Shown here: in pieces, positions 16,793 through 32,894 of the stretch
Layout of the letters: the number at the start of each line of letters is the position of its first letter
Numbering within the stretch: position 1 is the first letter of the stretch
Source of the DNA: Dehalococcoidia bacterium
GTDB lineage: Bacteria; Chloroflexota; Dehalococcoidia; Dehalococcoidales; DAOWJH01
DNA length: 32,895 nt
Assembly: GCA_030640495.1 (NCBI GenBank)
Contig: DAOWJH010000086.1
Coordinates: 1 to 32,895, forward strand
Direction: 5' to 3'
Position numbers and translations under genes: made by a program
The notes under the pieces: generated by a model
Told to the model about the DNA's origin: nothing
What the model saw: only the letters and a program-made list of their open reading frames with translations
Database searches by the model: none

Positions 16793-16821
16793 TTGACAAA
16801 GCCTGAATAATATGTTATTAG
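16793..16821 (+). promoter_or_regulatory. Candidate promoter of TRAP operon 1
   Basis: TTGACA (16793-98), 17 nt spacer, TATTAG (16816-21) preceded by TGT. The same TTGACA-N17-(TGT)TATTAG arrangement is found upstream of TRAP operon 3. Confidence 0.5.
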
Positions 16822-17075: not shown

Positions 17076-18275
17076 ATGATTGGAGGTAAAAAGATTAAGC
17101 CTTTAGTGTTTGTTAGTTTAGCTTTAGTTCTAGCGCTCTCTCTAGTGGCTGGTGCTTGTGCTCCAGCGGCACCAGAGGAGGCTGCCGAGGAGGTTGCCGC
17201 GCTGGAATCAAAGTTAGCTGCGGAAAAGTCCAAAGTCTCTAGTCTGGAGGGCGAGGTTTCTGACCTGGAGGGCGAGGTTTCTGACCTGGAGGGCGAGATT
17301 GCTGAGCTAAGAGCACCGGCTGAGGTGTTTGAGTGGAAGTTCCAAACGTGGGCTACCCCGGGAGACATAGACTTTGCGGGCTACCAACTTTCAATAGAAG
17401 AGCTTAAGGCGGCATCTGACGGCCGGATAGATATTGAACTATTTGGTGTCGGGGTGCTAGTGGGAGGGGTTGAGGCAATTGAAGCTGAGGGCGCAGGAAT
17501 AATTGATGGAAGTTTCGCCTTTGGTGGCTATTATTCGGGTTATGACTTCGCCTTTGGAGTCGCCGGCTCCCCAGCCTCCCTCTTCCCAGACTTTAGGACC
17601 CATACGCTGTGGTTCGAGGAGTTTGGCGGTATCGAGCTAATGAGAGAACTTTACGGCGGGTACAATATTTATTATGTCTGCCCAATAGAGCTGGTTGCCG
17701 AAGCTATAAACTCCGTGGTCCCCATCAGGAACCTTGATGACCTTCAGGGATTAAAAATCAGATTGGGGGGTGGGGGTTTTTGTGCTGAGGTCTTTACCAG
17801 GGCGGGAGCCGTAGTTCACTTTATATCTGGAGGCGAGATTTATTCGGCGCTGGATACAGGGCTTGTTGAAGCTGGTGAATTCGTAGGCCCAACCACGAAT
17901 TGGGCGCTCGGTCTCCATGAGGTTACAGACTATGTCTTATGGCCGGCACCTCATAATAGAACGATATACACCGAGCTGACGCTAAATATGGATGTCTGGG
18001 AAGGGTTGCCTGACAACCTCAAGGATCTCATTCATGCGGCGCGACATACAATTTCAGCGAACAACCGTTACAGAATACTGGCTGCCGATTTGGACACAAT
18101 AGACAAGATGGTTGCTTTAGGTCTAGAGCACACAGTGTTCGCACCTGAGAGTTGGAAGGTGCTGGAGGAGTTGAGTTTTGAAGTCGCTTTAGAGTCCAAG
18201 GAGAAGAGCCCAATGAGTGAGAGGATGATTACCTCACAACTTGATTTGTTGGAGCGCCTAGGGTACATAGATTAG
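17076..18275 (+). CDS. dctP: TRAP transporter solute-binding protein (DctP-type) with lipoprotein signal and N-terminal coiled-coil stalk
   Basis: Signal peptide with lipobox-like LVAGAC. Heptad segment at residues ~40-80. DctP-family features (GLKIR, YSALDTGLVEAGE). Followed by dctQ and dctM. Confidence 0.8.
   Translation: MIGGKKIKPLVFVSLALVLALSLVAGACAPAAPEEAAEEVAALESKLAAEKSKVSSLEGEVSDLEGEVSDLEGEIAELRAPAEVFEWKFQTWATPGDIDFAGYQLSIEELKAASDGRIDIELFGVGVLVGGVEAIEAEGAGIIDGSFAFGGYYSGYDFAFGVAGSPASLFPDFRTHTLWFEEFGGIELMRELYGGYNIYYVCPIELVAEAINSVVPIRNLDDLQGLKIRLGGGGFCAEVFTRAGAVVHFISGGEIYSALDTGLVEAGEFVGPTTNWALGLHEVTDYVLWPAPHNRTIYTELTLNMDVWEGLPDNLKDLIHAARHTISANNRYRILAADLDTIDKMVALGLEHTVFAPESWKVLEELSFEVALESKEKSPMSERMITSQLDLLERLGYID
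17244..17306 (+). repeat. 21-nt (one heptad) tandem repeat: two perfect copies and one imperfect copy
   Basis: CTGGAGGGCGAGGTTTCTGAC at 17244-17264 and 17265-17285, then CTGGAGGGCGAGATTGCTGAG at 17286-17306. This encodes LEGEVSD LEGEVSD LEGEIAE. Confidence 0.95.
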
Positions 18276-18301
18276 TGGTATAGACGACTATAGTTACAAG
18301 T

Positions 18302-18337
18302 CTGGGGGGTGTAGGGTAGTTTCACTATGCCCCCCAG
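18302..18337 (+). other. Intercistronic hairpin between dctP1 and dctQ1
   Basis: CTGGGGGG (18302-09) and CCCCCCAG (18330-37) form an 8-bp GC-rich stem with a 20-nt loop. There is no clear U-tract. Confidence 0.35.
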
Positions 18338-18423
18338 TGTTTGTGAACTTCATTAGAATTTTGATTAAAAACTTAATACATTCCATAATATAGCCCTTAT
18401 TATATAAGGACGGTTCATAAGGA

Positions 18424-18927
18424 ATGAAGTCTTTTTTGTCAGTTATTGACAGCATGAGTGAATGGTCGGGAAAAATCTTTTCCTTTTTAGTGTTGGCGGC
18501 AGTCCTGGTAGCAACCTACGAAGTGGTAATGAGGTATGCCTTTAACGCCCCTACCGTGTGGAGTCTTGACCTGACCATATTTTTGTGTGGTGCCACCTAT
18601 GTGATGGCGGGAGCCTATGCCCATTACCATAACGCCCATGTTAAGATAGAGGCATTGTATGGGCGCTGGACGCCACGGACGAGGGCTATGGTTGACTTGT
18701 TGGTTACTGCTCCGCTGTTATTTGGCTTTTGTGGTGTGCTGGTATGGGTAGGGATAGGATGGACTTGGGAGGCCATAGTCGGAAAGATAACCTATTATAC
18801 AGAGTGGCACGCGCCCATCTGGCCGATGAGGCTGATAATAACCTTAGCCGCCTTTCTTCTGCTACTTCAGGGATTGGCTAAATTCATTCGCGACCTGGCT
18901 ACTATCAAGGGAAAGGGAGCAGTATGA
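18424..18927 (+). CDS. dctQ: TRAP transporter small permease
   Basis: 167 aa with 4 predicted transmembrane segments. Its stop overlaps the dctM start (ATGA). It is a paralog of 22438-22950 and 28164-28679. Confidence 0.85.
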   Translation: MKSFLSVIDSMSEWSGKIFSFLVLAAVLVATYEVVMRYAFNAPTVWSLDLTIFLCGATYVMAGAYAHYHNAHVKIEALYGRWTPRTRAMVDLLVTAPLLFGFCGVLVWVGIGWTWEAIVGKITYYTEWHAPIWPMRLIITLAAFLLLLQGLAKFIRDLATIKGKGAV

Positions 18928-20243
18928 GTCCCGAGCTGGTTACTGTGGTGATGGTGGGCTCCTTTTTTGTATTGCTGGCAGTAGGGGTTCCTCTTGCCTG
19001 GGCTGCTGCCGCCGTGGGTCTGGCAGTCGGTTTCATCCTGTCGGGTCCCGACATTTTCCCTATGCTCGTTTACCGCATCTGGAACACAATGTGCAGCTGG
19101 AGTCTGATAGCTGTTCCCCTGTTTGTCTTCATGGCGAATATGCTGCAACATTCTGGAATAGCCGATGACCTGTATGAAGCCTTTTACCGTTGGTTGGGTC
19201 CGATTAGAGGCGGCCTGGCAATGGCCAGTGTGGCAGTCTGCACCCTTGTGGCGGCGATGCTGGGGACAGCCGGAGCCGGTGTAACCATAATGGGGCTCAT
19301 TGCTCTCCCGGCTATGCTCAAGCGCAAATATGACAAACGTTTAGCCTGTGGGAGTATTGTTGCCGGTGGTAGTCTAGGAGTGCTCATCCCACCCAGCATA
19401 ATGTTTATCATTTATGGCATGTTCGCCGGCGTATCAATAGGGAAGTTGTTCATGGGTGGCATCCTCCCAGGCTTGCTCCTTTCTTTCTTGTACATTAGCT
19501 ATATAGGCATCAGGTGTTACTTGAATCCACAGGCTGGTCCAGCACCATCCAAGGAAGAAAGAGCAGCAATTACCTTACGCCTAAAAATCACTGCTACCAG
19601 GAGCTTAATCCTACCCATCTTGCTCATCGTGGCCGTTTTAGGGTCTATTTTCAGCGGAATAGCTACCCCTGGGGAAGCAGCCGGGGTAGGGGCTATAGGG
19701 GCGATGTTATGTGCTGCTGTCCGTCGCCAATTTACCTGGCAAAATTTGAAGCTATCACTCTACGGAACTATGAGGACCATCGGTCTGGTTATGTGGATTG
19801 TATTTGGAGGTATGATCTTCATCACTATTTATACACTTGCCGGCGCCACCGACTTTGTAAGTGGGGTGCTATTTGCACTGCCCTTAGGTCCTTGGGGCAC
19901 CCTCATTGTAATCCAAGTCATACTAATCCTCCTGGGAATGGTTCTTGAGACTATCAGCATTATTGTGCTATGTGTGCCCATCTTCGTCCCCGTTATCACC
20001 GCCTTGGGCTTTAGCCCCCTATGGTTCGGAGTTCTGTTCAACATTAATCTGCAGATAGCTTACTTATCGCCGCCCTTTGGCTACTCCCTGTTCTATCTGA
20101 AAGGGGTGGCGCCTCCGGAGATAAGTGTCACCGACCTTTACCTTAGCGTCTGGCCTTTTATAATACTTCAGTTGATTGGTCTGGTTCTGTGCATGATATT
20201 CCCCCCGATAATCCTGTGGCTTCCTGGTATGATGATAAAATAG
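18924..20243 (+). CDS. dctM: TRAP transporter large permease
   Basis: 439 aa polytopic membrane protein. Conserved segments GGLAMASV...GLIALPAMLKRKYD...GSLGVLIPPS...LSPPFGYSLFYLKGVAPP are shared with the two other copies. Confidence 0.9.
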   Translation: MSPELVTVVMVGSFFVLLAVGVPLAWAAAAVGLAVGFILSGPDIFPMLVYRIWNTMCSWSLIAVPLFVFMANMLQHSGIADDLYEAFYRWLGPIRGGLAMASVAVCTLVAAMLGTAGAGVTIMGLIALPAMLKRKYDKRLACGSIVAGGSLGVLIPPSIMFIIYGMFAGVSIGKLFMGGILPGLLLSFLYISYIGIRCYLNPQAGPAPSKEERAAITLRLKITATRSLILPILLIVAVLGSIFSGIATPGEAAGVGAIGAMLCAAVRRQFTWQNLKLSLYGTMRTIGLVMWIVFGGMIFITIYTLAGATDFVSGVLFALPLGPWGTLIVIQVILILLGMVLETISIIVLCVPIFVPVITALGFSPLWFGVLFNINLQIAYLSPPFGYSLFYLKGVAPPEISVTDLYLSVWPFIILQLIGLVLCMIFPPIILWLPGMMIK

Positions 20244-20996: not shown

Positions 20997-21143
20997 GGGT
21001 CATCGTTGACTCAATAGAGTGATGCTCAGGTCTTCTAGAAGCTTTCCTTTTCATGCCTGACACTGAGACCGACAACATTGCTAAAGGAGGTGGGAAATGA
21101 GGTAGTTAATTAAATACCCAGGGTGACTAATTTTTAGGAGGTT

Positions 21144-22304
21144 ATGGAATTGAAAACTAAAAGACTATTGATGCTAGTTGGTAGTGTTTGTCTAGCCGTG
21201 ATGCTAGCACTGCCGCTGGTGGCAAGTTGTGGTCCAGCAGCACCAGAGGAGGGTGCCGAGGCTGAGCTAGAAGCGAAGCTAGCTGCAGAGAAGGCGAAGG
21301 TCTCTAGTCTGGAGGACGAGGTTGCCGACCTGGAGGACGAGATTGCCGGGCTAAGAGCACCAGGTGAGGTATATAAATGGAGACTGGCTGATGAATATGG
21401 CGCCGCGATGACTAGCTGGTGTCTCGACCCCCTTATTGCTGATATTAGCGACATGAGCGGTGGGCTAATTAAAATTGAGGGATACGCTTCAGGAGTGCTA
21501 GTGCCGGATGACCAGGCGCTTGATGCCTTAGATAAGAATATCATTGATATGGCACGTACTGCGTCAGCCTACTTTGCTGATAAGATGGACACCGCCATGC
21601 TCAATTGTTTGCCCTTTATTTGGCAAGATGATGTAGAGTGCGAGATACTCCTTCATAAATTAGGGCTTGAGGACATTATCCGTGAAGGCTATGCTGATCT
21701 TGGCGCTTACTATCTAAGCGAAAGTATGTCAGGTCCATACTATATGTTAACAAACACGCCTGTCACCTGTATTGCAGATTTACAACCGCTCAAGATCAGG
21801 GCTACCGCCACTAATACTCCCTGGCTAGCGGAGCTAGGGGTGTCAAGCACCTACTACCCTGCCGCCGAACTCTACACTTCATTATCTACAGGTATTGTTG
21901 ATGGGGCTATCTACGGGGGAGCGACTGACTACACAGATCTGGGGCTATTTGAGGTTGCCACATATATTATAAAGCCGACGGTTTACAATCCAGCATGCGA
22001 CCTGTACCTAGTAAGCCTGGACCTGTGGAACTCACTGCCTAAGAATCTTCAAACAATCCTGACCGCAGCAGGTAGGAAAAGCAGCCGCTTTATATACAAT
22101 GAGTTCCAGAGAAGAGAGATTGTCGACCTGGCGGCGGCCATGGAAACTTATGGCGTCACTGTAACCCATCTTCCAGCTGAAGACCAAGCACTGATATTCC
22201 AAGCAGCCGACAAGCAGTGGGACGAACAAGCTGCACGGAGTGAGCGCACTGCAAGAGGAATTGAAATTATCAGAAGCTGGCACGAAATTCTACGCGGCTC
22301 GTAG
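21144..22304 (+). CDS. dctP: TRAP transporter solute-binding protein (DctP-type) with lipobox and coiled-coil stalk
   Basis: Lipobox LVASC, then PAAPEE and the heptads LEAKLAAEKAKVSSLEDEVADLEDEIAGL. Also LKIR and LSTGIVDGAIYG motifs. AGGAGG Shine-Dalgarno site. Confidence 0.8.
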   Translation: MELKTKRLLMLVGSVCLAVMLALPLVASCGPAAPEEGAEAELEAKLAAEKAKVSSLEDEVADLEDEIAGLRAPGEVYKWRLADEYGAAMTSWCLDPLIADISDMSGGLIKIEGYASGVLVPDDQALDALDKNIIDMARTASAYFADKMDTAMLNCLPFIWQDDVECEILLHKLGLEDIIREGYADLGAYYLSESMSGPYYMLTNTPVTCIADLQPLKIRATATNTPWLAELGVSSTYYPAAELYTSLSTGIVDGAIYGGATDYTDLGLFEVATYIIKPTVYNPACDLYLVSLDLWNSLPKNLQTILTAAGRKSSRFIYNEFQRREIVDLAAAMETYGVTVTHLPAEDQALIFQAADKQWDEQAARSERTARGIEIIRSWHEILRGS

Positions 22305-22437
22305 GAAGATTTGGTCTGCCGAAGTTCCCGGTGCACAAGCAATATTTGTCACTCGTGGTCGCCTTGGCTCCTGGAGAGGGGGCTAGGGTGGCCACGAAAA
22401 CAATAAGCTTAAATCAAGAAAGGGAAAGTTGGACTAA

Positions 22438-22950
22438 GTGCTGAAATTAAAGCGTGTCCTCAGCACAATTGATGCCATAAGTAAGTGGTCAGGCTATGTC
22501 GTCATGTTCGGGACACTGGTGATAACTCTTTTTCTAACCATCGAAGTGGTAGCCCGATATGTATTTAATGCCCCTACTCTATGGGCTACAGAGTCTACCT
22601 CCATTGCTTATGGTATTATGGTACTCATCGCCGGAGCGTATGTCCTTATCACCGGTGGGCATGTCAATATGGATGCACTATACAACCGCCTCTCCCCAAG
22701 GAGAAAAGCCGCTCTGGACATATTTACTTCTGTTTTTTTCTTTACCTTTTGTGTCATATTGTTGCGGAATGGAATTCCATTGGCAATTAAGGCTATAGTA
22801 TTGCAGGAGCACTCTCAAAGTGCCTGGGGAGCCCCATGGTGGCCAACAAGGATAGCAATACCCATAGGGGCTTTCTTAATACTGCTTCAAGGATTGGCTA
22901 AGTTAATCCGTGATTTTTATACTGCTGTGACGGGAAGTAAGTTGGTATGA
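22438..22950 (+). CDS. dctQ: TRAP transporter small permease
   Basis: 170 aa with 4 transmembrane segments. GTG start per the ORF track. 4-nt overlap with the dctM start. Confidence 0.8.
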   Translation: MLKLKRVLSTIDAISKWSGYVVMFGTLVITLFLTIEVVARYVFNAPTLWATESTSIAYGIMVLIAGAYVLITGGHVNMDALYNRLSPRRKAALDIFTSVFFFTFCVILLRNGIPLAIKAIVLQEHSQSAWGAPWWPTRIAIPIGAFLILLQGLAKLIRDFYTAVTGSKLV

Positions 22951-24275
22951 GCATTGAACTTATTTCGTTATTGATGTTCGGCAGTATGCTATTACTCATA
23001 TTAAGCGGATTACCTATAGCTTTTGCCTTAGGTGGTCTATCAGTTATATTTGTTTCTTTGCTATGGGGTCCTGAAGCAATAGAGCTGATTCTCTACGCAA
23101 CCATGGATGTACAAAATATGTACACTATCGTGTGCGTTCCTGGTTTTGTCTTCACCGGGATTATTCTACAAAACTCTGGCATTGCCGATGACATGTTCGA
23201 CACAATACGAAAATGGTCTGGCCGACTCAAAGGTGGGTTGGCAATCGGTGTGGTGATTATTTGTGCTCTCTTCGGCGCTATGGTAGGAATAGCTGCAGTG
23301 GGTACCCTGACTATGGGGCTCATTGCCCTTCCGGCTATGCTTAAGCGCCACTATGATAAAGAACTAGCGATGGGGACCATTCAGGCTGGAGGTGCACTGG
23401 GTTGTCTCATTCCCCCTAGCGTCGTCTTCGCTCTTTATGGAGTTATCGCCCGACAGTCAATTGGGCAACTGTTCATGGCAGGGCTTTTCCCCGGGCTGCT
23501 GCTTGCCGGTTTATTTATTATCTATATAGTGATAAGGTGTCATTTTCAGCCCCACCTCGGGCCTGGACTCCCCCCTGAAGAGAGGGTTTCCTGGAATGAG
23601 AAGTTTGCTTCCCTCAAGGGGCTTATATTTCCTTTCCTTTTAATCTTCCTGGTTCTGGGGCTAATCATGCTGGGTGTTACTACCCCTACTGAAGCCTCTG
23701 CCGTAGGGGCTCTAGGTAGCATTATTGTGGCTATTATTCGTCGGAAGTTTAATTGGCCTATGTTGAAGGATGCCCTCCTGAGTACCATGAAACTCACTGC
23801 CATGGTTGCCTGGATCTTTATAGCCGCTCTGTCCTTTAGCCGAATATACACCGGCTTAGGAGCTGTTGAGCTGCTGGCTGGCTGGCTAGAGGGTATTGGA
23901 TTGGGACCTTGGGGTACCATCATACTGATGCAGGTCAGCTTCTTTCTTATGGGATTCGTCTTGGATGAACAGGCTATGCTTTTCATTGTTGCTCCTATCT
24001 ATATACCCATAGTTGCCGGCTTGGGTTTTGACCTCGTATGGTTTGGGGTTCTCTATGTCATGAATACAGAGATGGCTTTGCTGACACCGCCTTACGGTTT
24101 CAACCTGTTTTACATGAAAAGTATCGTTCCTAAAGGTATAACCATGATGGATATTTATAAATCGGTCATTCCCTACGTAGGGCTTCAAGCGCTGGGGTTA
24201 GCCATGGTCATGATATTTCCACAAATAGCCATGTGGCTTCCAGGCCTGGTATCGGCTAGATTAGCTCAAGGTTAA
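22947..24275 (+). CDS. dctM: TRAP transporter large permease
   Basis: 442 aa and a paralog of 18924-20243 (GLIALPAMLKRHYD, LTPPYGFNLFYMK). Confidence 0.9.
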   Translation: MSIELISLLMFGSMLLLILSGLPIAFALGGLSVIFVSLLWGPEAIELILYATMDVQNMYTIVCVPGFVFTGIILQNSGIADDMFDTIRKWSGRLKGGLAIGVVIICALFGAMVGIAAVGTLTMGLIALPAMLKRHYDKELAMGTIQAGGALGCLIPPSVVFALYGVIARQSIGQLFMAGLFPGLLLAGLFIIYIVIRCHFQPHLGPGLPPEERVSWNEKFASLKGLIFPFLLIFLVLGLIMLGVTTPTEASAVGALGSIIVAIIRRKFNWPMLKDALLSTMKLTAMVAWIFIAALSFSRIYTGLGAVELLAGWLEGIGLGPWGTIILMQVSFFLMGFVLDEQAMLFIVAPIYIPIVAGLGFDLVWFGVLYVMNTEMALLTPPYGFNLFYMKSIVPKGITMMDIYKSVIPYVGLQALGLAMVMIFPQIAMWLPGLVSARLAQG

Positions 24276-24352
24276 GTCTCTAATTTCCGTAAACTTAAAT
24301 AAGTGGATAGCCAAGGTTTGGTAATATGATTAAATACTAAGGAGGTATTAAG

Positions 24353-25414
24353 ATGACTATTACCAAGAAGGAACTTACTGGAAAGGCTCAAACTGTGTTG
24401 GGCCCGATTGATGTGGAGGAACTGGGAATAACTCTACCTCATGAACACTTTCTTCTTGACATGGGGGTTTGGTTTGACCCGCCCAAAATAGCCAGCGAGA
24501 AGGCACTGGCATACCAACCAATCACCATGGAAAACCTCGGCTGGGTGCACTATAACGAGTATAAAAACCTGGATAATGTGCAATTGCTGGATGAAGAGTT
24601 AGCTATTAAGGAAGCTATGCTATTCAAAAAAGAAGGCGGTAAGACAATTGTTGATGTTACCAATGTTAACCTTAGCCGTGACCCTGCAGCCCTAGTGCGT
24701 ATTTCCCAGGTTACAGGTCTCAATATAATTATGGGCTCAGGCTACTACGTAGGTGAGGCACAGGGGGAGGACTTTGACCGTAAGTCTGAAGAGGAGATTG
24801 CAGAAGAAATTGTGCGAGATATTACGGTAGGAGTTGACGACACAGGGATATGCTCTGGGATTATTGGGGAGGTTGGCGGCTCATGGCCTTTACAAGACAG
24901 AGAGAAAAAGAGTTTGCGTGCTTCTGCCCGTGCCCAGAAACTTGCCGGGGCACCAATTACTTTACATACCGGTCGTAACGAAGGTTCACCACTAGAAATG
25001 AGCCAAGTGCTGGATGATGCTGGCGCTGATATGAGCCATGTGGCGGTAGGGCATTTAGACCGCGAGGTCTACTCCCTCAAAAGTCTCCTGGACTTAGCCA
25101 AGGGAGGTTGCTATCTTCAATATGATGGCTTTGGAGACACAGTATTTTACTCGCTGCATCTTGGAGTATACGATAGGCCAAGTGATATACAGCGCATCAG
25201 GCAAATTATGGAACTCATTGACAAGGGATATTTAAACCAGATTCTCATATCGCATGATGTTTGCCTGAAGACAAAGCTTGTTGCTTATGGCGATGGTGGC
25301 TATGCCCATATCTTGCGCAATATCGTACCTCAGATGCGAGCCAGAGGTGTCTCCGCAAAAGAAATACATACCATACTAGTGGAAAACCCAAAACGCTTTC
25401 TGCAGTTTCACTAA
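24353..25414 (+). CDS. Phosphotriesterase-family (PTE/PHP-like) amidohydrolase-fold hydrolase, possibly a lactonase
   Basis: N-terminal metal-binding GITLPHEHFLLD (HxH), an internal HTG, and a later ISHD. It lies 77 nt after dctM2 with a strong Shine-Dalgarno site (AAGGAGG), so it is likely in the same operon. Confidence 0.75.
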   Translation: MTITKKELTGKAQTVLGPIDVEELGITLPHEHFLLDMGVWFDPPKIASEKALAYQPITMENLGWVHYNEYKNLDNVQLLDEELAIKEAMLFKKEGGKTIVDVTNVNLSRDPAALVRISQVTGLNIIMGSGYYVGEAQGEDFDRKSEEEIAEEIVRDITVGVDDTGICSGIIGEVGGSWPLQDREKKSLRASARAQKLAGAPITLHTGRNEGSPLEMSQVLDDAGADMSHVAVGHLDREVYSLKSLLDLAKGGCYLQYDGFGDTVFYSLHLGVYDRPSDIQRIRQIMELIDKGYLNQILISHDVCLKTKLVAYGDGGYAHILRNIVPQMRARGVSAKEIHTILVENPKRFLQFH

Positions 25415-25421
25415 AAGTGAG

Positions 25422-25543
25422 ACGGGCTCTGCCAGGGGAAACTGAGGTAAACAGGGGTTTTTATAATCTTTTTACCCTTAGTTTTTGATTCCTCCCCCTC
25501 CCGTGTGGTAGCCTCAGCTGTAATCGGGCAAGTGGCATCCCGT
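25422..25543 (+). repeat. ~120-nt structured repeat element, copy A (possible ncRNA or 3'-UTR element)
   Basis: Starts 7 nt after the PTE-like stop codon. Near-identical to the reverse complement of 31333-31450 in its 5' 26 nt (1 mismatch) and 3' ~54 nt (3 differences). The middle is divergent. The terminal helix is ACGGG...CCCGT. Confidence 0.7.
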
Positions 25544-25646
25544 CTAAAAGACAAAAAGGGAAGAAGGTGGTTAGGTAGAAACATTCGGTCTTCCAGAGCA
25601 AAAATAGCAACTTGGAAGAAGTGTAGAGTACTCTTAGCGATTACGA

Positions 25647-26612
25647 TTATGATTTTGATGGAAAGACAGCTCCCATGAAGTGGAGAATTAACGCAGCGAT
25701 TGTTCGAGAAGTCATATTGCTACAGTCATAAGCAGGACAAAAACAAGCCACGTCAAAACCGACCACCCTTCCCCTTTTGGCTATCCCAACAAGGGTCTGC
25801 TGGACCTCTAAGAAGCTTAACCCACCTGGCTCCTGAAAGGTTGTGCCCGGTGCCACCGATGGGTCCAAAGCATCGACATCAAGGCTTACATAGATATTCT
25901 TAGCCTCGGGAATGCTCTCTACCACCTTACTAACTCCCATCTGTCTGAACTTATTAGCTGTAATGATTTTCTCGCCATACTTCAAAGCTGCGTCATAGGC
26001 TTTCCTAGAACTAGGTGGTAAAGGAGCTCTGAAGCCAATCAGCGTTATGTTATGAACGAAAGGAAGCTCAGAGCAGCGCCTAAATGCACTGGCGTTGAAG
26101 ACTTTTACCCCCTCCTCCGTCTCATCTTCAAAGTCCAGGTGGGCGTCAAGATACACAATATCAAGAGGTTCATATCTCTCAAAAGCTTTTACCACCAGAA
26201 AGGGAATCGTATGGTCCCCCCCGATGACCACGGGAAGGCTACCACGAGCCAATATCTGCCTGACCGTTTTAGCTACCCTCTCAAAGTTCCCCTCATTTTC
26301 AGTAGGTAGAATATTTACATCACCGCAATCAGCCATAGTAACACCCTTTAATTCCTCTACACCAGTATCAACATTGAACCACCCACAAGCAGCCTCAGCC
26401 TGGCCATCGTCGGTATAGGAATATTCGCTCTGGGCTTGGCGGACTGCTGCCGGACCCCACCTAGTGCCACCCCGGCACCACCTTCTCGAGCCGTAGTCGA
26501 AGGGAAGCCCTAGGAAGGCGATATCCGCTGAGAGCTCATCAAGATTGCTACAGGTAGGCATACCGAATAGTGTCTTAACCCCTGACAGAACATCCCTCGT
26601 TTTTTTTCTCAC
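25647..26612 (-). CDS. Arginase/agmatinase/formiminoglutamase-family ureohydrolase
   Basis: Mn-binding motifs GGDHTI, DAHLDF and SLDVDALDP. GTG start with an AAGGAGA Shine-Dalgarno site. It lies downstream of TRAP operon 3 on the same strand. Confidence 0.85.
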   Translation of the reverse strand: MRKKTRDVLSGVKTLFGMPTCSNLDELSADIAFLGLPFDYGSRRWCRGGTRWGPAAVRQAQSEYSYTDDGQAEAACGWFNVDTGVEELKGVTMADCGDVNILPTENEGNFERVAKTVRQILARGSLPVVIGGDHTIPFLVVKAFERYEPLDIVYLDAHLDFEDETEEGVKVFNASAFRRCSELPFVHNITLIGFRAPLPPSSRKAYDAALKYGEKIITANKFRQMGVSKVVESIPEAKNIYVSLDVDALDPSVAPGTTFQEPGGLSFLEVQQTLVGIAKRGRVVGFDVACFCPAYDCSNMTSRTIAALILHFMGAVFPSKS

Positions 26613-26847
26613 TGTCTTTCTCCTTATTCCTAAATTTTTGGATTTTGGGGGTCTTCAGTCCACATGCTGGTGCTAATGCTCTTTAATTGAGGTCATCGTT
26701 CCCCCAGTAATGCTTGCTCAGCAGCAGCTTTTGCTTACTATAAAACTTGCCGGTGAAAATCCCCCTTTGAGTATTTCTTTTATTCCAGGGCGCATCAGCC
26801 TTAGTAAAACACCCTCTGCTATCCTTACCTTCTACCGCTACTATTCC

Positions 26848-28167
26848 TCACCCAAGCGCAAAAACTGTTTCAGGAAGCCATAAGGCTAACTGCGGGAAGA
26901 GTAGAACCAAAACTAACACAGATGCTTGGATTATTAAAAAGGGCCAAATAGAACGGTAGATATCTGTTATGGTTACTCCAGGTGGAGCCACTCCCCTCAT
27001 ATAGAACAGACAATAGCCGAATGGAGGAGTCAAGTAGCCTAGCTGCATATTAATTATGAAAAGAACTCCAAACCATACCGGGTCAAAGCCAAAAGCCACA
27101 AGAATTGGGGCATACACGGGAATTGTCAATGTTATCATAGTTATTTCTTCTACAATGCAGCCTAAAAGTATGTAGCTTAACTGCATAAATACAACAAGCA
27201 TAATGGGTGACACTGTTAAGTCTGTCAATACTCCGCGGACTAACTGGGCAGTACCTATATCAATAAATATAGTAGCAAATATTTTCGCCCCGAAAATGAT
27301 CCACATAATGATACAGTTAATTACAAAAGTTCGGTAGCATGCCTCTTTAAATAGCTGCCAGCTAAGTTTGCGGCGAATAGCAATGGAAACTAAAATGGCA
27401 ACAGCTCCTACAGCAGCAGATTCCATAGGGGAGGCTATACCCAGAAAGATCGAACCTAGCATGATGACGATAATAACAATAGGTATAATTACTCCCCTGC
27501 TTAGAGCAAGCTTCTGCCTAAAAGGTAGCCTGTCTTCAGGGGGCACAACGGGACCAAGGCTCGGTCGAAAATGACATCTCAGACCTATATAGGTCATATA
27601 GGATGCTGATAGAATAACTCCCGGGATAAGCCCTCCGGCAAACAACCTTCCTATAGATGTGTGTGTCAACATACCAAAGATGATGGCGGTAACGCTGGGA
27701 GGGATGAGGATTCCCAATGCTCCACCAGCCATGATAGGAGCCAGTGCTATACTTTTGTCATACTTGTACCTGAGCATTATGGGAAGGGCGATAACTCCCA
27801 TGGTGATTACGCCAGCAGCGGCTACTCCTGACATGGCGGCAATTACAGTGCAAACTACCACTGTGGCTATGGCTAGGCCGCCAGGTACCGCTGCCAACCA
27901 GTGGCGTATAGCTGCATATAGTTCTTCTGCTAGGCCAGACTTTTCCAAGAGGCAAGCTATAAAAATAAATAGAGGCATCGCAACCAGGGATAGCGATACC
28001 ATTCCAGAATAGACCTGCATGGCAGCGATGGTAAGCACACGCGTCCCCCCGTAGATAAAGCCAACTACTATGGCGCTAGACCCCAAAGTGAAGGCCATGG
28101 GAAAGCCTAGAGCCAAACCAACAAAGAGGCAGGCAAGGAGTATAATTAGCAGTGTAAGAGGAGTCAC
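26848..28167 (-). CDS. dctM: TRAP transporter large permease
   Basis: 439 aa and the third paralog (GVIALPIMLRYKYD, LTPPFGYCLFYMRGVAPP). Confidence 0.9.
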   Translation of the reverse strand: MTPLTLLIILLACLFVGLALGFPMAFTLGSSAIVVGFIYGGTRVLTIAAMQVYSGMVSLSLVAMPLFIFIACLLEKSGLAEELYAAIRHWLAAVPGGLAIATVVVCTVIAAMSGVAAAGVITMGVIALPIMLRYKYDKSIALAPIMAGGALGILIPPSVTAIIFGMLTHTSIGRLFAGGLIPGVILSASYMTYIGLRCHFRPSLGPVVPPEDRLPFRQKLALSRGVIIPIVIIVIMLGSIFLGIASPMESAAVGAVAILVSIAIRRKLSWQLFKEACYRTFVINCIIMWIIFGAKIFATIFIDIGTAQLVRGVLTDLTVSPIMLVVFMQLSYILLGCIVEEITMITLTIPVYAPILVAFGFDPVWFGVLFIINMQLGYLTPPFGYCLFYMRGVAPPGVTITDIYRSIWPFLIIQASVLVLVLLFPQLALWLPETVFALG

Positions 28168-28679
28168 TTTAGCTCTTCCCTTTTAATAACTAACCAGAAA
28201 TTTCGTATAGCTAGAGCCAAAGTTTGAAGTAACATTAGCAAGGCGGCTAGAGGTATACATATCTTAACCGGATATAATGGAGAACGGAACATGGTACACG
28301 TAGTTTCTCTGGCTAGTGTAGAGCTTAGTGCCATGTTAAATCCTTGTACAAATATGAGGATGAGCAGCATAAAGAGAAGGGGGAAGGCTATTAAATCACA
28401 AATTGCCTTCCCCCTTTCTGAGAACCGGGCATAGATAACATCTGACCTAATATGCTGGTTAAGCAAAAGGGCGTAACCACCACCAATAACTGAATACGCA
28501 GCAAAGATAGCGCAGGTTATTTCATGCGCCCAATGCGTAGGTGAGTTAAATCCGTATCTTAAAACAACTTCATAGGCCAATATCAAAGTCATGAATATAA
28601 TGAGCACACTGAGAACCTTCCCGGTGTGCGCATTAATCATGCCAATAATACGCAAAAAACGTAAAAGATGATTACGCAT
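28164..28679 (-). CDS. dctQ: TRAP transporter small permease
   Basis: 171 aa with 4 transmembrane segments. 4-nt overlap with dctM. Confidence 0.85.
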   Translation of the reverse strand: MRNHLLRFLRIIGMINAHTGKVLSVLIIFMTLILAYEVVLRYGFNSPTHWAHEITCAIFAAYSVIGGGYALLLNQHIRSDVIYARFSERGKAICDLIAFPLLFMLLILIFVQGFNMALSSTLARETTCTMFRSPLYPVKICIPLAALLMLLQTLALAIRNFWLVIKREELK

Positions 28680-28703
28680 CCCTTAGGCCTGTAACTAAAA
28701 CTC

Positions 28704-29912
28704 CTATTTTAGCCCGGCTAGCTCGGCTATACCTGGCTCGTATTTGATTAGGAAATCTTGAAGTATTTGGAGTGCTTCTTGACTGGGCGCATCAGTGGAG
28801 AACTCCTCTGTAGCATCAAGCACTGCCTTCTGATATATGAGAATATCCTCAGCAGACCAGTCTATTATTTCAATTCCGCGCTCTTCTGCTATCTCCCAAG
28901 CCTCGGCATTAACCTTAGCCCCATCGTAAATTGCATAGGTGTCTGCCGCTCCAACCGCTGTGCTTACTATAGCCTTAAGGTCATCAGTAAGTTCGCCCCA
29001 TTCCGCTTCATTTACAGCGAACCAGTAACCCATCGTGTCTTGCGTATAAGGCTCTCGAATCCAATAGTCAGTGACGTCATCCCAGCCCATTTCCAGGTAA
29101 TCTGAAGCACAGGCGTAGGAAATGGCATCCACGAGGCCAGTGGCTAATGAGGTGTAGCATTCCCCCCCTGGGAACCACGTTGTTGCCGCCCCTAACGACT
29201 CCCAGGCTCCAGCGTCTGCTGTAGCCCCAGTCCTATACTTTATCCCTGGAATATCTTCTATACCATAGATAGGAACTGTTGAAGCAGTGCAACAAAACTC
29301 TCGCGTAACAACTACTGGTGTGACAATGTGTATACCAGGATAATATTTGTCAGTTTCCTCCCTTATTAGCTCAAGCACCCGACCGTTAGCCTCATATTGA
29401 AGATACTGCCTAATCTCCCAGGGTTTATATAGGACATGCGAGGCGTTGGATGCCAACATATAAAGAGGAACTTTACCTTCCCAGTAATCAAGATAGAGAA
29501 ACATCGCCGGGGTTGCGCCCGTAGAGACGAATTCTATCTGTTGTGGCACAGCACATAGCGCCCCCGGTAGCGTGGGCTCAGCAACTATGCGCCCGTCCGA
29601 CGCCTCGGTTATGTAATCGCATATATTACACAAGCAACGCCAGTGGATTCCTGCACTTGCCCAACATGATGGCTTCCATTTCAGCACCTCAGCCGGTTTT
29701 TTCAGGGCTGCAATCTCATCCTCCAGGTCGGCAACATCATCCTCCAACCCGCTAGACTTCGCCTTTTCCACAGTTAATTTTGATTCCAGCTCGGCAATCT
29801 CCCCGGCAGCCTCCTCTGGTGTCGCTGGAGCACAGCTTGCCACCAGCGGCACTGCCAGCATCAGAGCTAGACAAACACTGCCAAGTAACGTCAATAATCT
29901 TTTCCTTTTCAA
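28704..29912 (-). CDS. dctP: TRAP transporter solute-binding protein (DctP-type) with lipobox and coiled-coil stalk
   Basis: TTG start after an AAGGAGG Shine-Dalgarno site. Lipobox LVASC, then PATPEE and the heptads LESKLTVEKAKSSGLEDDVADLEDEIAAL. Also IKYR and LATGLVDA motifs. Confidence 0.78.
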   Translation of the reverse strand: MKRKRLLTLLGSVCLALMLAVPLVASCAPATPEEAAGEIAELESKLTVEKAKSSGLEDDVADLEDEIAALKKPAEVLKWKPSCWASAGIHWRCLCNICDYITEASDGRIVAEPTLPGALCAVPQQIEFVSTGATPAMFLYLDYWEGKVPLYMLASNASHVLYKPWEIRQYLQYEANGRVLELIREETDKYYPGIHIVTPVVVTREFCCTASTVPIYGIEDIPGIKYRTGATADAGAWESLGAATTWFPGGECYTSLATGLVDAISYACASDYLEMGWDDVTDYWIREPYTQDTMGYWFAVNEAEWGELTDDLKAIVSTAVGAADTYAIYDGAKVNAEAWEIAEERGIEIIDWSAEDILIYQKAVLDATEEFSTDAPSQEALQILQDFLIKYEPGIAELAGLK

Positions 29913-30139
29913 TTTGATAACCTCCTTATTCTTGAATTTCTGGTAGCTCTGTTTTTCAATCCTTTATCTTTGTCAGTATCACCCCCTTTCCGGGTCTCCC
30001 CGCTTAGTCTTCATAATCCCTCGGCCTTTCTTAAACCACTCCTCGTCAAAGCATCCTTACTTTGTTCAGCTTTTTTCGCTTCTGGCTTCCTCAATCCACT
30101 CACCATCCATTTGATAAACTTTTTTAGTAATACAGTATT
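29913..30139 (-). promoter_or_regulatory. Conserved 5' leader of TRAP operon 3
   Basis: Its reverse complement aligns with the operon 1 leader. Shared blocks are GGTGAG..GG.TTGA.., GATGCTTTG..GGAGTGG and TAAGCGGGGAGACC.GGAA.GGGGGTGATA.TG. Confidence 0.4.
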
Positions 30140-30168
30140 CTAATAACACAAATCACAGAGTTTGTCAA
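30140..30168 (-). promoter_or_regulatory. Candidate promoter of TRAP operon 3
   Basis: On the minus strand: TTGACA (30168-63), 17 nt spacer, TATTAG (30145-40) preceded by TGT. The same boxes and spacing occur at 16793-16821. Confidence 0.5.
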
Positions 30169-30302
30169 TATCTTCTCGGGCAATAGCTCGATCGCTTAGA
30201 TTCAAAGGTGCCCAGCTTCATGACATTCGCCATGCTCATGCTACAATCTTGTTAGCACGAAAAATTGATAACGGCTTGGAAGGTACTCCGACCGAAGAGT
30301 AA
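30147..30302 (+). pseudogene. Tyrosine recombinase (phage-type integrase) gene remnant, C-terminal fragment
   Basis: The short frame translates to ...AIARSLRFKGAQLHDIRHAHATILLARKIDNGLEGTPTEE*. LHDIRHAHATILL matches the integrase box II motif (HDLRHT.AT.LL). There is no N-terminal domain and the frame ends before the catalytic Tyr region. Confidence 0.55.
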
Positions 30303-30372: not shown

Positions 30373-30462
30373 GGAGGGGTGTCCGAGTGGTCTATGGTGA
30401 CGGTCTTGAAAACCGTTGTTCCTGCAAGGGGACCGTGGGTTCGAATCCCACCCCCTCCGCCA
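30373..30462 (+). tRNA. tRNA-Ser (anticodon UGA) with long variable arm and encoded CCA
   Basis: Acceptor stem GGAGGGG/CCCCTCC. D-arm TCCGAGTGGTC. Anticodon stem ACGGT/ACCGT with loop CTTGAAA. Long variable arm. T-arm GTGGG-TTCGAATC-CCAC. Discriminator G followed by CCA. Confidence 0.92.
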
Positions 30463-30556: not shown

Positions 30557-31201
30557 TCAACACTCTCTTCTTTTCCTCAACCGCCATAAACCCAAGATGA
30601 AGTTAAATCCTGGGACTTCTTTCATATACTGTTGATATTCGTCACCCCATTTTTCTATATCAAGCTTCTCTTCCATATGGATTCCATAGTAAAAGTAAAT
30701 AATCATTATGACGATTGCAGCAATTGAAAGGATGGTGAACGAAACATATTCACTGATTATGATGGGTAACAGAAAAGGCCACATCATCCCACCTGAAGCC
30801 TGGGGATGTCTCATAACACTGTATGGGCCTTCTTTATATAGAATGATGGCTTCGCCGGTTCGTTTAAGCCCTCCTCTTTTACGATGTGAAAGAATTCCCC
30901 AAACGAGAAAAAAGGTTCCGACCACCACGAGGACTATCGAAATATAGATTGCAACCGATGGGAAAGTGATGGCTCGCAGTTGGGCGAACCACTCCAAGAA
31001 ATCCAATTTAAAATGCCTTGCCCACGTGGGAAGAAGCCAAAGTATAAAATAAATGACCCACGGGATAAACTCCCAAGATCCCCCCTGTGTTCCTTCCGTG
31101 AGTTTTCTTTCTTCGAGCTTTTTGAACACTCCCTTGGAAGTGAGCTCTCCTCTTTGCAGTTTCTCTACTAAATCTGTTACTTTGCCTTTTTTCTTTTCCA
31201 T
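30557..31201 (-). CDS. Membrane methyltransferase family protein (ICMT/PEMT-like) with a ~45-aa soluble N-terminal extension
   Basis: Transmembrane-rich ORF with VMRHPQASGGMMWPFLLPI and HMEEKLDIEKWGDEYQQYMKEVP motifs. It is a distant paralog of 14695-15270. Confidence 0.6.
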   Translation of the reverse strand: MEKKKGKVTDLVEKLQRGELTSKGVFKKLEERKLTEGTQGGSWEFIPWVIYFILWLLPTWARHFKLDFLEWFAQLRAITFPSVAIYISIVLVVVGTFFLVWGILSHRKRGGLKRTGEAIILYKEGPYSVMRHPQASGGMMWPFLLPIIISEYVSFTILSIAAIVIMIIYFYYGIHMEEKLDIEKWGDEYQQYMKEVPGFNFILGLWRLRKRREC

Positions 31202-31224: not shown

Positions 31225-31332
31225 CACTGAGGGCAACTTCAGTTGACTTCAGTTGACTTAAGTGTAACAGTCTTAGCTGCAGTTGAACATTATGGACTTT
31301 CGTTCAATGGTGAAGTGAAAGGTATGGGAAAG

Positions 31333-31450
31333 GCGGGGTGCCACTTGCCCGATTACGGCTGAGGTACCACACGGGAGGGGGAGGAAGCTAAGCTAACAGG
31401 GCAAAAGGATAAAAATTCCTAGCACCTCAGTTTCCCCTAGCAGAGCCCGC
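31333..31450 (-). repeat. ~120-nt structured repeat element, copy B (inverted relative to copy A)
   Basis: On the minus strand it starts 8 nt after the alr stop codon. The terminal helix is GCGGG...CCCGC, a compensatory change relative to copy A (ACGGG...CCCGT). Confidence 0.7.
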
Positions 31451-31458
31451 ACTAGTTT

Positions 31459-32574
31459 TTATTTAGTAATATAGATACGGCGTAACCCAGCCCCTACTCT
31501 AGTAAATACCTCATTGCTTATAGTATCAGCCCAATTCGCAATCTCATCAGCATTGATTTCCTGGCTGCCTTGGTATCCCAGCAATACTACTTCATCACCG
31601 ACTTTTACCTCGGGCACAGTAGTTACATCTACAATGCATTGGTCCATACATACCCTTCCCCGAATAGGTACTCGTTGTCCATGTATCAGAACCTGCCCCC
31701 GATTAGATAGTAAGCGGGGCAAACCGTGTCCATAGCCAAAGGGGACCAGTGCCATTAAAGCATCTGTCTTAGCAGTCCAGGTCAGACCATAACTTACGCC
31801 CTCGCCTGGCCTTATCCAGTGAAGGCGGACTACCCGCGATTTGAGGCTGAGAACTGGTCGCAAGGGAACAGTCTTCTCAGTAGCTGGGGGCGGGTAGACT
31901 CCATACATCGCTATACCTACGCGAACTAGGTTCAGATGGGTCTCAGGAAACCTCAAGGCAGCAGCACTGTTAGCAGCATGCAGGAATCTTAGCTCGGGAT
32001 GGTTAGCGGCTACCTCGAGGAACCGCTGCAACTGAGTTTCAGTAACCCTTCGGTCTGGCTCATCTGCTGAGGCAAAATGCGTGTATAATCCTCCAATCCT
32101 TACCCGCCCCAGACTATAAATAAAGTGAAGTAAGTGGGGAATATCCTCAATGCTAGCCCCAGAGCGGTTAATGCCAGTATCTACCTTGACATGCACAGCA
32201 ATGGTGGTGCCGAGCTCCCGGGCTGCTCTATCTAGAGCGAGGGGAAGTTTGGTTTCGGTTACCGTGGGAGTCAGTTTTTTCTCAACTATTGCAATTGCCT
32301 GAGCGAGTGGTACCCCACCTAATATCAAGACTGGAGCCGTAATGCCAGCATTCCGTAGTTCCAACCCTTCTTCCAGAGAATGAACACCGAGCCACTCAGC
32401 ACCTGCTGCCACTGCTGCTTTCGCAATTTGAACAGCACCATGCCCATAAGCATTTTTTTTTACTACTGCCATTAACTGTGTCCCTGGTTGCAGGTGCTGA
32501 CGCAAGTTTCTGATATTATGAGTAAATGCTGACAGATTTATTTCGGCCCAGCTCAGCAAATCACCTTTAGTCAT
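31459..32574 (-). CDS. alr: Alanine racemase
   Basis: PLP-lysine motif AVVKKNAYGHG near the N-terminus. The C-terminal beta-domain has VSYG and MDQCIVDV motifs. Length is 371 aa. Confidence 0.9.
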   Translation of the reverse strand: MTKGDLLSWAEINLSAFTHNIRNLRQHLQPGTQLMAVVKKNAYGHGAVQIAKAAVAAGAEWLGVHSLEEGLELRNAGITAPVLILGGVPLAQAIAIVEKKLTPTVTETKLPLALDRAARELGTTIAVHVKVDTGINRSGASIEDIPHLLHFIYSLGRVRIGGLYTHFASADEPDRRVTETQLQRFLEVAANHPELRFLHAANSAAALRFPETHLNLVRVGIAMYGVYPPPATEKTVPLRPVLSLKSRVVRLHWIRPGEGVSYGLTWTAKTDALMALVPFGYGHGLPRLLSNRGQVLIHGQRVPIRGRVCMDQCIVDVTTVPEVKVGDEVVLLGYQGSQEINADEIANWADTISNEVFTRVGAGLRRIYITK

Positions 32575-32894
32575 ATTCCCTTCGGATATGCATGCTCAAG
32601 GCCTACTTGAGCAAACCAAGTCCCCTCTATTTTCTTGAGTTCTTTGACCAAATCTTCGGACAGCGGCTTTGGTTTATAAGTTTTTAATATTTTGAGGGTT
32701 TTTTCGTTTAACAGTTCCTCACAATTCTTTACACCTTCGCCTTTTACCAAGCTACGGTCAAAGACCGTTGGTACCCAAAATTTACGAAAATGCTTTAATG
32801 TGTGAGCCTGGGAAAGATAGTCCCCTCTCGGTCCCACACGCTCAATAAGGTCAAGGGGAAGGGTTTCATCATTGATTTCCAAACCACCCATCAT
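32571..32894 (-). CDS. MttB-superfamily (trimethylamine/glycine-betaine type) methyltransferase, C-terminal ~107 aa; the N-terminus lies outside the window
   Basis: The ORF runs to the window edge. VGPRGDYLSQAHTLKHFRKFWVPTVFDR resembles the conserved C-terminal region of MttB-family proteins. Its stop overlaps the alr start (ATGA). Confidence 0.65.
   Translation of the reverse strand: MMGGLEINDETLPLDLIERVGPRGDYLSQAHTLKHFRKFWVPTVFDRSLVKGEGVKNCEELLNEKTLKILKTYKPKPLSEDLVKELKKIEGTWFAQVGLEHAYPKGI

Follow-up and report, generated by a model that had tools for sequence, protein, structure and literature searches.

An undescribed family of pseudoknotted RNA modules present in many copies in Dehalococcoidia

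Two copies of the module in the window

We analyzed a stretch of 32,895 nucleotides from a Dehalococcoidia bacterium (contig DAOWJH010000086.1, forward strand; the whole stretch is referred to as the window) and found that two elements in it, copies A and B, are members of an undescribed family of pseudoknotted RNA modules that occurs in many copies in Dehalococcoidia (Chloroflexota). Copy A (25422-25543, +) is separated by 7 nt from the stop codon of a phosphotriesterase-family open reading frame (ORF, 24353-25414) and copy B (31450-31333, -) by 8 nt from that of the alanine racemase gene alr (31459-32574); the two are inverted relative to each other and lie 5.8 kb apart. An earlier note on this DNA had placed both copies at these positions and strands, in agreement with a covariance model of the family (R1, built from the MAFFT alignment A3 of 52 copies), which gave exactly two matches in the window (85.6 and 79.3 bits; E 6e-21 and 3e-19), the only strong ones, with the next best at 12.4 bits. 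The pattern of similarity described in the note was also recovered by repeat alignment, with one mismatch in the 5' 26 nt (inverted repeat I11, 96%), a match of at least 91% in the 3' half of about 54 nt (inverted repeat I9), and a centre that is about half conserved. With its closing helix P1 lengthened by two pairs, copy A spans 25420-25545. The parts of the two copies are as follows.

25420-25545, +: copy A, whole module from the P1 5' strand to the P1 3' strand (cmsearch 85.6 bits, E 5.7e-21)
25420-25426, +: copy A, P1 5' strand AGACGGG, partner CCCGTCT at 25539-25545 (sequence; P1 covaries family-wide)
25430-25433, +: copy A, P2 5' strand TGCC, partner GGCA at 25534-25537 (covariation columns)
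25434-25441, +: copy A, purine-rich junction AGGGGAAA, family consensus GGGGGAAA (near-invariant A3 columns)
25442-25447, +: copy A, P3 5' strand CTGAGG, partner CCTCAG at 25512-25517 (covariation; RNAalifold)
25448-25490, +: copy A, hypervariable hairpin P4 and linker (the P4 base covaries; length and sequence vary among copies)
25491-25506, +: copy A, core rich in C, CCTCCCCCTCCCGTGT (CCCCUCCCGUG in the family), resembling an anti-Shine-Dalgarno strand (conservation among copies)
25507-25519, +: copy A, pseudoknot helix, formed by GG (25507-25508) and CT (25518-25519) on either side of the P3 3' strand (25512-25517)
25520-25529, +: copy A, conserved GTAATCGGGC (invariant A3 columns)
25546-25570, +: class-A 3' extension AAAAGACAAAAAGGGAAGAAGGTGG, an A-tract and a G-rich tract (recurs after non-orthologous copies)
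31331-31453, -: copy B, whole module (cmsearch 79.3 bits, E 2.6e-19)
31450-31446 with 31337-31333, -: copy B, P1, GCGGG with CCCGC
31442-31439 with 31342-31339, -: copy B, P2, TGCT with GGCA
31430-31425 with 31364-31359, -: copy B, P3
31384-31372, -: copy B, C-run; pseudoknot GG at 31368-31367 with CC at 31358-31357
31290-31330, -: class-B 3' extension CTTTCCCATACCTTTCACTTCACCATTGAACGAAAGTCCA, with a second small hairpin CUUUC..UUCA-CCAU-UGAA..GAAAG (recurrence; folding)

Family, fold and covariation

A BLASTN search of 72,556 plasmids with copy A as the query yielded no matches, and the exact 20-mer CCTCCCCCTCCCGTGTGGTA was absent from 185,579 GTDB species-representative genomes, so that the species of the window is not one of these; an exact look-up of its phosphotriesterase-family protein likewise returned no record. 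The same 20-mer was found in 33 metagenome contigs, 32 of which carry a module or a contig-end fragment of one (the match in locus L033 was due to chance; loci are cited by their L numbers). Three of these contigs add a more diverged second copy behind a promoter-like site, TTGACA-17-TATAAG, and since this second copy revealed which positions are generally conserved, it led to the gapped pattern CCCCTCCCGT-N12-18-AATCGGGC-N5-8-GGCA. The pattern matched 41 loci in genome assemblies, 39 of them with the module, and nearly all of these loci belong to metagenome-assembled genomes (MAGs) labelled Dehalococcoidales, Dehalococcoidia or Chloroflexia. The metagenome contigs with copies are marine and sediment, and one viral contig (L075) also carries a copy. 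On the 74 loci, the covariance model gave 85 matches, including extra copies missed by the patterns, and these amount to 72 distinct sites once orthologous loci are merged, 28 of them in the lineage of the window and coming from the one exact 20-mer scan. Several loci hold more than one copy (four in the 4 kb of L021, three in L059, and two each in L023, L045, L054, and L068). A few copies lie on contigs binned outside Chloroflexota (L039, a Smithellaceae MAG; L044; L070, an Aenigmatarchaeota MAG), which is likely the result of mis-binning or horizontal transfer; the gene for a solute-binding protein (SBP) beside the L039 copy resembles those on the "Chloroflexia"-labelled contigs L055 and L063.

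Across the family, the module measures about 100 to 130 nt. P1 and P2 (TGCC/GGCA) are followed by the junction GGGGRAAA, a 6-bp P3, the hairpin P4, an A-rich linker, CCCCUCCCGUG, the pseudoknot, and GUAAUCGGGC; in A3 the segment after the A-rich linker reads CCCCTCCCGTG, and the conserved GTAATCGGGC comes after the pseudoknot. P1 is variable and covaries (GCTGGTCC/GGGCCAGC, CATCAGATCC/GGGTCTGATG, AGGCGGG/CCCGCCT). P3 is CTGAGG/CCTCAG in the window type and CCAGGG/CCCTGG in most MAGs, with CTAGGG/CCCTAG, CCGGGG/CCCCGG, and CAAGGG/CCCTTG as further variants. The pseudoknot is a helix of 2 to 3 bp whose strands flank the P3 3' strand (CC..GG, GG..CT/CC, GC..GT, CG..CG, TC..GA), and it has 3 bp in a short subtype of the module (TGC/GCA, TGC/GTA). 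Two further helices seen in the earlier note, TGCC/GGCA changing to a G-U-compatible TGCT/GGCA and CTGAGG/CCTCAG, are P2 and P3, both helices of the family. The note contained nothing on the pseudoknot, on the conserved 3' extensions, or on repeat-like behaviour in populations.

The alignment A3 was not fitted to the structure, and pairs were counted in it per cell. We found 89.5% of the cells paired, against 32 to 55% when the 3' partners were slid by one to three columns, and none of 500 shuffles matched any of five pairing measures. Changes on both sides were found in 21 of the 26 pairs, including 8 of the 12 in P1 and P2, 5 of the 6 in P3, and all 6 at the base of P4. In P2 (A3 columns 11-14 with 131-134) the counts were UA 52, GC 51, CG 42/UG 10, and CG 51/UG 1. 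The pseudoknot columns gave CG 18, GU 16, GC 5, UG 2, and UA 1 (101-114) and CG 20, GC 20, and UG 4 (102-113). P3 had 98.7% of its cells paired and was recovered independently by RNAalifold, which also offered an alternative pairing of the GGC of AATCGGGC (the same GGC within GTAATCGGGC of copy A) with the GCC of P2. Most of the unpaired cells in P1 come from 15 window-type rows because P1 is shifted there by two columns by a 3x1 internal loop. The alignment contains 118 G-U cells against 25 A-C cells; therefore, the fold lies on the given strand, and this strand is sense with respect to the neighbouring genes. The earlier note read the element as a structured RNA whose helices are conserved and whose interior varies, and this reading is backed by covariation over 52 copies. 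The change from ACGGG/CCCGT in copy A to GCGGG/CCCGC in copy B, which it took as compensatory, involves a genuine P1 pair, though it is one event, shared with the L023 orthologue; L009 has a G-U intermediate, and the A-U of copy A stands where G-C is usual (column counts GC 19, AU 2, GU 2). Since single-sequence folding is unconvincing (z = -2.5 for copy A and -0.25 for copy B, with similar values for the opposite strands), support for the fold rests on the comparative data.

The best-conserved parts are the unpaired internal segments, and P1 is variable yet covarying, which in an alignment is the pattern of a functional RNA core. The C-rich core is identical in all copies found by pattern and nearly identical in those found by the model only, although segments fixed by the search patterns look invariant in pattern-found copies and this retrieval bias applies here; the model-only copy L068:813-912 has CCCCTCCTGT in this place, plus ATTCGGGC, and the copy L054:52-177 is degenerate. 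The C-run may be a tertiary partner of the G-run in the junction. A short ORF starting at a GUG after P3 was considered and rejected, as differences in the length of P4 break the reading frame and there is no conserved stop codon.

The Rfam scan proposed in the earlier note was run, and the module matches no Rfam 15 family. At gathering thresholds, the window and 16 loci gave no match on the module, and the sole match in the window was tRNA-Ser (30373-30459); with the limit raised to E <= 10, the two copies gave only chance matches of 13 to 19 bits, none to a ribozyme family. We found no description of the module in the literature. The nearest candidate is WRC-34-1 (known as the rdhA motif), a weak riboswitch candidate of Dehalococcoides with 18 representatives, located upstream of reductive dehalogenase genes when gene data exist (Narunsky et al. 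2024, PMC11109978). Both are leader RNA candidates from the same bacterial class; however, no reductive dehalogenase is among the downstream genes that we examined, and the two were set apart by description only.

Neighbouring sequences and genes

Orientation was counted over the 72 dereplicated sites, with the MAG copies and those of the window lineage taken separately. Among the MAG copies, co-directional genes prevail downstream (30:9) and the upstream gene is unbiased (20:15), and the module typically lies 40 to 250 nt upstream of a co-directional gene, a 5'-leader arrangement. For the window-lineage copies, the upstream gene is co-directional at 23 of 25 sites (23:2) and the downstream gene at 17 of 24 (17:7), and at 12 sites the upstream gene ends no more than 40 nt from the module. 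The fixed position after stop codons that had been suggested from the two copies therefore holds for about 12 of the 28 window-lineage sites and fails as a property of the family, since the MAG copies are mostly in leaders. A promoter-like TTGACA-17-TATATT is located 2 to 26 nt upstream of the copies in L049, L064, L020, and L054 (52-177), and the same placement was found before the second, downstream copies of L022, L025, and L032. Modules also occur in tandem, 80 to 200 nt apart (L022:696-979, L032:429-712, L025:1512-1798, L059:247-689), and the second copies in L022, L032, and L025 are of the shorter subtype without a long P4 and have the promoter-like site of their own.

The genes downstream of the module in MAGs code mostly for SBP_bac_5 lipoproteins of about 600 amino acids that belong to ABC transporters. 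Other transport genes in this position code for binding proteins of tripartite ATP-independent periplasmic (TRAP) transporters (DctP) and of tripartite tricarboxylate transporters (TTT), and for an ABC permease. Enzymes are represented by acyl-CoA dehydrogenases and by oxidoreductases (molybdopterin, 2Fe-2S, and 4Fe-4S) that bear signals for twin-arginine (TAT) export, together with a B12-binding protein, an old-yellow-enzyme-type (OYE) flavin oxidoreductase, a metallo-beta-lactamase-fold protein, and enolase. That the module is an obligatory leader of SBP_bac_5 genes was rejected, given that four orthologous or paralogous loci (78 kb) are without any copy.

In the window, the genes beside the two copies are the following.

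24353-25414, +: upstream of copy A, phosphotriesterase-family hydrolase, last gene in a TRAP transporter operon (Pfam PF02126, E 2.6e-80)
25647-26612, -: downstream of copy A, convergent arginase-family gene (Pfam PF00491, E 2e-61)
31459-32574, -: upstream of copy B, alanine racemase, alr (Pfam PF01168, PF00842)
30557-31201, -: 127 nt downstream of copy B, co-directional gene with a weak PEMT-like methyltransferase match (Pfam PF04191, 24.6 bits, cutoff 25)

Copy B fits the leader pattern, as a putative intercistronic leader, and copy A does not: because the next gene is the convergent arginase-family one, copy A has no co-directional downstream gene in this strain. The 3' untranslated region (UTR) stabilizer proposed in the earlier note is consequently at best a description of copy A, copy B having the position of an intercistronic leader. 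Neither terminator-like nor promoter-like sites were found beside either window copy, and there is no U-tract, as the note had observed when it dismissed a simple terminator. Orthologues of copy A are present in L005, L006, L016, L023, and L027, and those of copy B in L011, which repeats the layout of alr, module, and co-directional gene, and in L023:11151-11264. No copy is found between the gene at 32571-32894 and alr.

Directly 3' of the module, conserved sequences of two classes were found. Class A, which follows copy A, consists of AAAAGACAAAAAGGG and a G-rich tract, and it recurs after the non-orthologous copies in L002/L004/L019, L007, and L068:813-912; a related ACAAAAAGGG follows the copies in L047, L059, and L060. 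Next to the MAG copies come A-tract/G-rich sequences related to class A or strong hairpins with a G-rich 5' arm. Terminator-like or strong hairpins with G-rich 5' arms stand directly after the copies in L043, L047, L057, and L068:813-912, that of L043 being a classical terminator. Class B is a small hairpin of about 41 nt found in nearly identical form after copy B and six non-orthologous copies (L001, L003, L010/L030, L021, L026). Indels distinguish the diverged class-B versions of L011, L015, and L020, and for this reason a coding reading, as a GTG-initiated peptide running through the extension, was rejected. In 10 of 76 copies, a GGAGG follows P1 at a distance of no more than 16 nt. A conserved GGAGGTGATGCC box or a leader peptide after P1 was also rejected, only a subset of the copies having it, with weak enrichment.

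The distribution of copies among strains and relatives resembles that of a repeat. The orthologous leaders of L054 and L076 align on both sides of a 128-nt gap, which corresponds in L054 to a model match, with its limits at the P1 ends and TTGA at both junctions. In this single case, the alignment indicates that the module was gained or lost as a unit, and both an insertion and a microhomology-mediated deletion fit. No further empty sites were found by BLAST of the flanks among all loci, and no consistent flanking target-site duplication was seen at the approximately 28 window-lineage sites. When strain contigs were compared with the window, end points of rearrangements or deletions fell within a few tens of nucleotides of copies (16312, 25556-25560, 30273, 31458-32581). 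Thus, L027 joins copy A to the tRNA-Ser region and lacks a 4.7-kb block with the arginase and TRAP genes (25556-30272), L016 joins copy A to the region 16788-19232, and in L002, L004, and L019 a copy is found 45 nt from a break inside serS (15406-16653). L023 has no alr, and there the orthologue of copy B comes after the preceding gene. The tRNA-Ser gene (anticodon TGA) is located at 30373-30462 (+) in the window and about 230 nt downstream of the copy A orthologue in L027.

Integrase, excisionase, or prophage genes adjoin the copies in L001, L015, L016, L023 (11151-11264), L047, L068:813-912, and the viral contig L075. These neighbours (for example, L001:428-1069 and L075:4305-6308) include integrase genes of phage type or pieces of them, a serine recombinase, an excisionase-like helix-turn-helix protein, and a shared prophage-type protein of 165 to 169 amino acids. 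From such neighbours, it may be suggested that the module serves as an integration site, as tRNA genes do.

Interpretation and rival explanations

Considering the covarying ends, the internal helices and pseudoknot, the conserved unpaired core, the excess of G-U cells, and the sense bias, the conservation pattern is, as far as alignments can tell, that of a functional RNA rather than of a DNA transposon, a terminator, or an attC site. The explanation that we favor, with moderate confidence, is a cis-acting mRNA module, either riboswitch-like or involved in processing, that also spreads like a repeat. A cis-acting regulatory domain is favored because of the leader position in MAGs, the promoter-proximal copies, the terminator-like or Shine-Dalgarno-like sequences that follow some copies, and the anti-Shine-Dalgarno-like C-run facing the G-run. 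The module would be carried in the mRNAs of its neighbours, transcribed on the same strand as they are, and would act in cis as a sensor or regulatory domain, that is, a riboswitch or a protein-binding leader. When a ligand or protein stabilized the compact fold, the C-run would pair with the internal G-run; alternatively, it would pair with the G-rich sequence downstream, either a GGAGG-type ribosome-binding site or the 5' arm of a terminator, and by this switching the following gene would be controlled at translation or termination. In that case, copy B would be the intercistronic leader of the gene at 30557-31201. Copy A would be a terminal 3'-UTR copy whose downstream partner differs by strain, and it would either cap the transcript or be a relic. 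The module would spread or be exchanged as a unit, behaving in populations like a dispersed repeat.

Several findings weigh against a cis-acting regulatory module. The functions of the downstream genes are heterogeneous, so that no single ligand suggests itself, and for about one quarter of the window-lineage copies, copy A among them, the only downstream gene is convergent. The module is missing beside close orthologues of the SBP genes associated with it (the model gave no matches in the 78 kb of the four SBP loci, which encode proteins 45 to 79% identical to the SBP of L064; L076 was also searched with filters off). The enrichment of Shine-Dalgarno-like sequences after P1 is modest (27 of 76 copies, against 15 of 74 upstream and 20 of 75 further away). 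The proposed tertiary pairs, G-run with C-run and CCCG with CGGG, never vary in the alignment, in part because the retrieval patterns fixed these columns. Finally, copies within one lineage are near-identical outside P4, even in P1, which would be unusual for independently evolving riboswitches. Because the genes are heterogeneous, some copies (copy A, for example) are 3'-terminal, and the behaviour is repeat-like, the explanations based on a ribozyme or processing element and on a selfish repeat stay alive.

Orphan riboswitch candidates and multi-copy leader RNAs share much with the module: a size of about 100 to 130 nt, a closing helix P1, a conserved junction, a pseudoknot, a variable peripheral hairpin, a position in 5' leaders of transporter or catabolic genes, several copies per genome, and tandem arrangements. 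Examples are GEMM-I (the cyclic di-GMP-I riboswitch) and T-box leaders, of which a genome has tens, situated upstream of diverse operons. Unlike such RNAs, the module has no Rfam 15 match, is near-identical within a lineage, is gained or lost as a unit, and in at least one quarter of its window-lineage copies has no downstream gene to control.

The first rival is a selfish dispersed repeat, similar to a miniature inverted-repeat transposable element (MITE) or to the ERIC, BOX, or bcr elements, that multiplies at the DNA level and whose helices are terminal inverted repeats, with RNA structure secondary. The 28 sites in the window lineage, with four copies in the 4-kb L021 and three in L059, would be expected of such a repeat, as would the near-identity within a lineage, the patchy presence among close relatives, the clean presence or absence of the module in L054/L076 (128-nt gap, TTGA at both junctions), and the end points of strain rearrangements beside copies. 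Nevertheless, conservation is reversed with respect to a transposon, as the P1 ends vary and covary and the internal unpaired parts are the most conserved. The internal helices and pseudoknot also covary, and G-U cells far exceed A-C cells. The earlier note had taken many copies in random orientation, target-site duplications, and a lack of covariation as marks of a MITE; the copies are indeed many, but their orientation is strongly biased, covariation is strong, a consistent flanking duplication was not seen at the approximately 28 window-lineage sites, and no transposase was noticed beside copies. A purely selfish repeat is thus unlikely, in our opinion, although it does not exclude the cis-acting mRNA module, since a functional RNA module may also be mobile.

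Structured transcribed repeats are known from other bacteria, such as ERIC/IRU in enterobacteria, BOX and RUP in Streptococcus pneumoniae, bcr1 in the Bacillus cereus group, and Correia elements in Neisseria. They resemble the module in their length of about 100 to 150 nt, in their many transcribed intergenic copies, often after stop codons, in their paired ends, in presence/absence polymorphism, and in being recombination hot spots. However, ERIC/BOX-type elements are essentially long imperfect hairpins with conserved ends, whereas in the module the ends vary and covary and the unpaired core and pseudoknot are conserved, its orientation is strongly biased, and no target-site duplication is established. 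For the related case of tnpA/tnpB (IS200/IS605, TnpB omega RNA), none was noticed among the examined neighbours, although no dedicated search was made. The module therefore acts most like an orphan riboswitch or leader RNA and is distributed most like the ERIC/BOX/bcr repeats, and it is a member of neither. More speculatively, and with a probability that we also regard as low, it could be a new class of functional RNA (a riboswitch aptamer responding to a global signal, or a ribozyme that cleaves itself) and be mobile in its own right, inserting sense-oriented into transcribed spacers, rewiring transporter and catabolic operons, and seeding rearrangements and integrations.

Somewhat less probable is an autonomous module for RNA processing or stability, for example, a new class of self-cleaving ribozyme or a nuclease-resistant cap, which would make or protect mRNA ends anywhere. 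It would account for copy A and suits the occurrence of copies at all three positions in transcripts (5' leader, intercistronic, and 3' UTR), the tandems (L022/L025/L032, L059), the compact pseudoknotted core with highly conserved unpaired nucleotides, and the heterogeneous contexts, including prophage and integrase genes, that are found for several ribozyme classes. On the other hand, the two copies match no Rfam 15 ribozyme family even at E <= 10, a cleavage site cannot be inferred, and the co-directional downstream bias in MAGs suits a leader better.

We regard it as improbable that the copies are genes for a small stable or trans-acting RNA whose C-rich strand would target Shine-Dalgarno sequences in other mRNAs, the copies serving, as tRNA genes do, as sites where mobile elements integrate. 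Some do have their own promoter-like site upstream and a terminator-like hairpin downstream (L043, L020, L047), and integrase, excisionase, or prophage genes adjoin several, but most window-lineage copies begin 1 to 36 nt after a stop codon without a promoter-like site, most copies have no terminator, and dozens of copies would be unusual for a small RNA. Least probable is a site of recombination at the DNA level, either similar to an integron attC or of another att type, folded as single-stranded DNA and marking cassette ends: the position just after stop codons, the paired ends, the variable centre (attC sites measure about 60 to 140 nt), the rearrangement end points at copies, and the same-orientation arrays of L021, with one gene between copies, recall it, but the RYYYAAC/GTTRRRY core sites (R''/R') are absent from the ends, which read (A)GGCGGG...CCCGCC(T) or GCTGGTCC...GGGCCAGC, the window has inverted copies, no copy between 32571-32894 and alr, and neither an integrase nor a cassette array, the integrases near other copies are generic phage-type fragments with no integron integrase noticed, most MAG copies are single and upstream of genes, and the RNA-type constraints, with a conserved unpaired core and pseudoknot, are foreign to attC.

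Dehalococcoidia are abundant in marine sediments and aquifers and hard to culture, and to our knowledge their RNA biology is almost undescribed. With many copies beside the chief genes for uptake and catabolism, this conserved, pseudoknotted RNA is a strong candidate for a device of global control or mRNA processing. Binding of a ligand would make it a new riboswitch class, one with an unusually broad regulon, and cleavage a new ribozyme class; its repeat-like behaviour would make it a rare functional RNA domain that spreads like a mobile element. The covariance model makes the family directly searchable, and the copies would provide a practical marker for genome plasticity in Dehalococcoidia MAGs.

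The window has other repetitive features. A second family of small repeats consists of a G/C-rich hairpin (CCCCCTCTCCTT / AAGGAGAGGGGG) followed by ATAnAGGGGGAGAG, located at 10778-10820, adjoining a classical terminator hairpin (10745-10770), and at 15337-15376; it sits in intergenic spacers after genes and was also found just 3' of the module copy in L009. The ORF at 5687-7468 (-) codes for 593 amino acids that are almost all made up of at least 16 tandem 75-nt (25-residue) repeats, with no Pfam match, and a HEAT/PBS-lyase-repeat protein is encoded at 10916-12322 (+), its 93-nt units showing as direct repeats in the DNA. There are also three paralogous TRAP transporter operons (DctP-DctQ-DctM; 16934-20243, 21136-25414, and 25647-30055), one ending with the phosphotriesterase-family gene and one with the arginase-family gene. 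The 5' ends of their DctP genes are similar, and for two of them so is the upstream leader of about 90 nt (16934-17025 and 29963-30055), which may represent a shared regulatory region.

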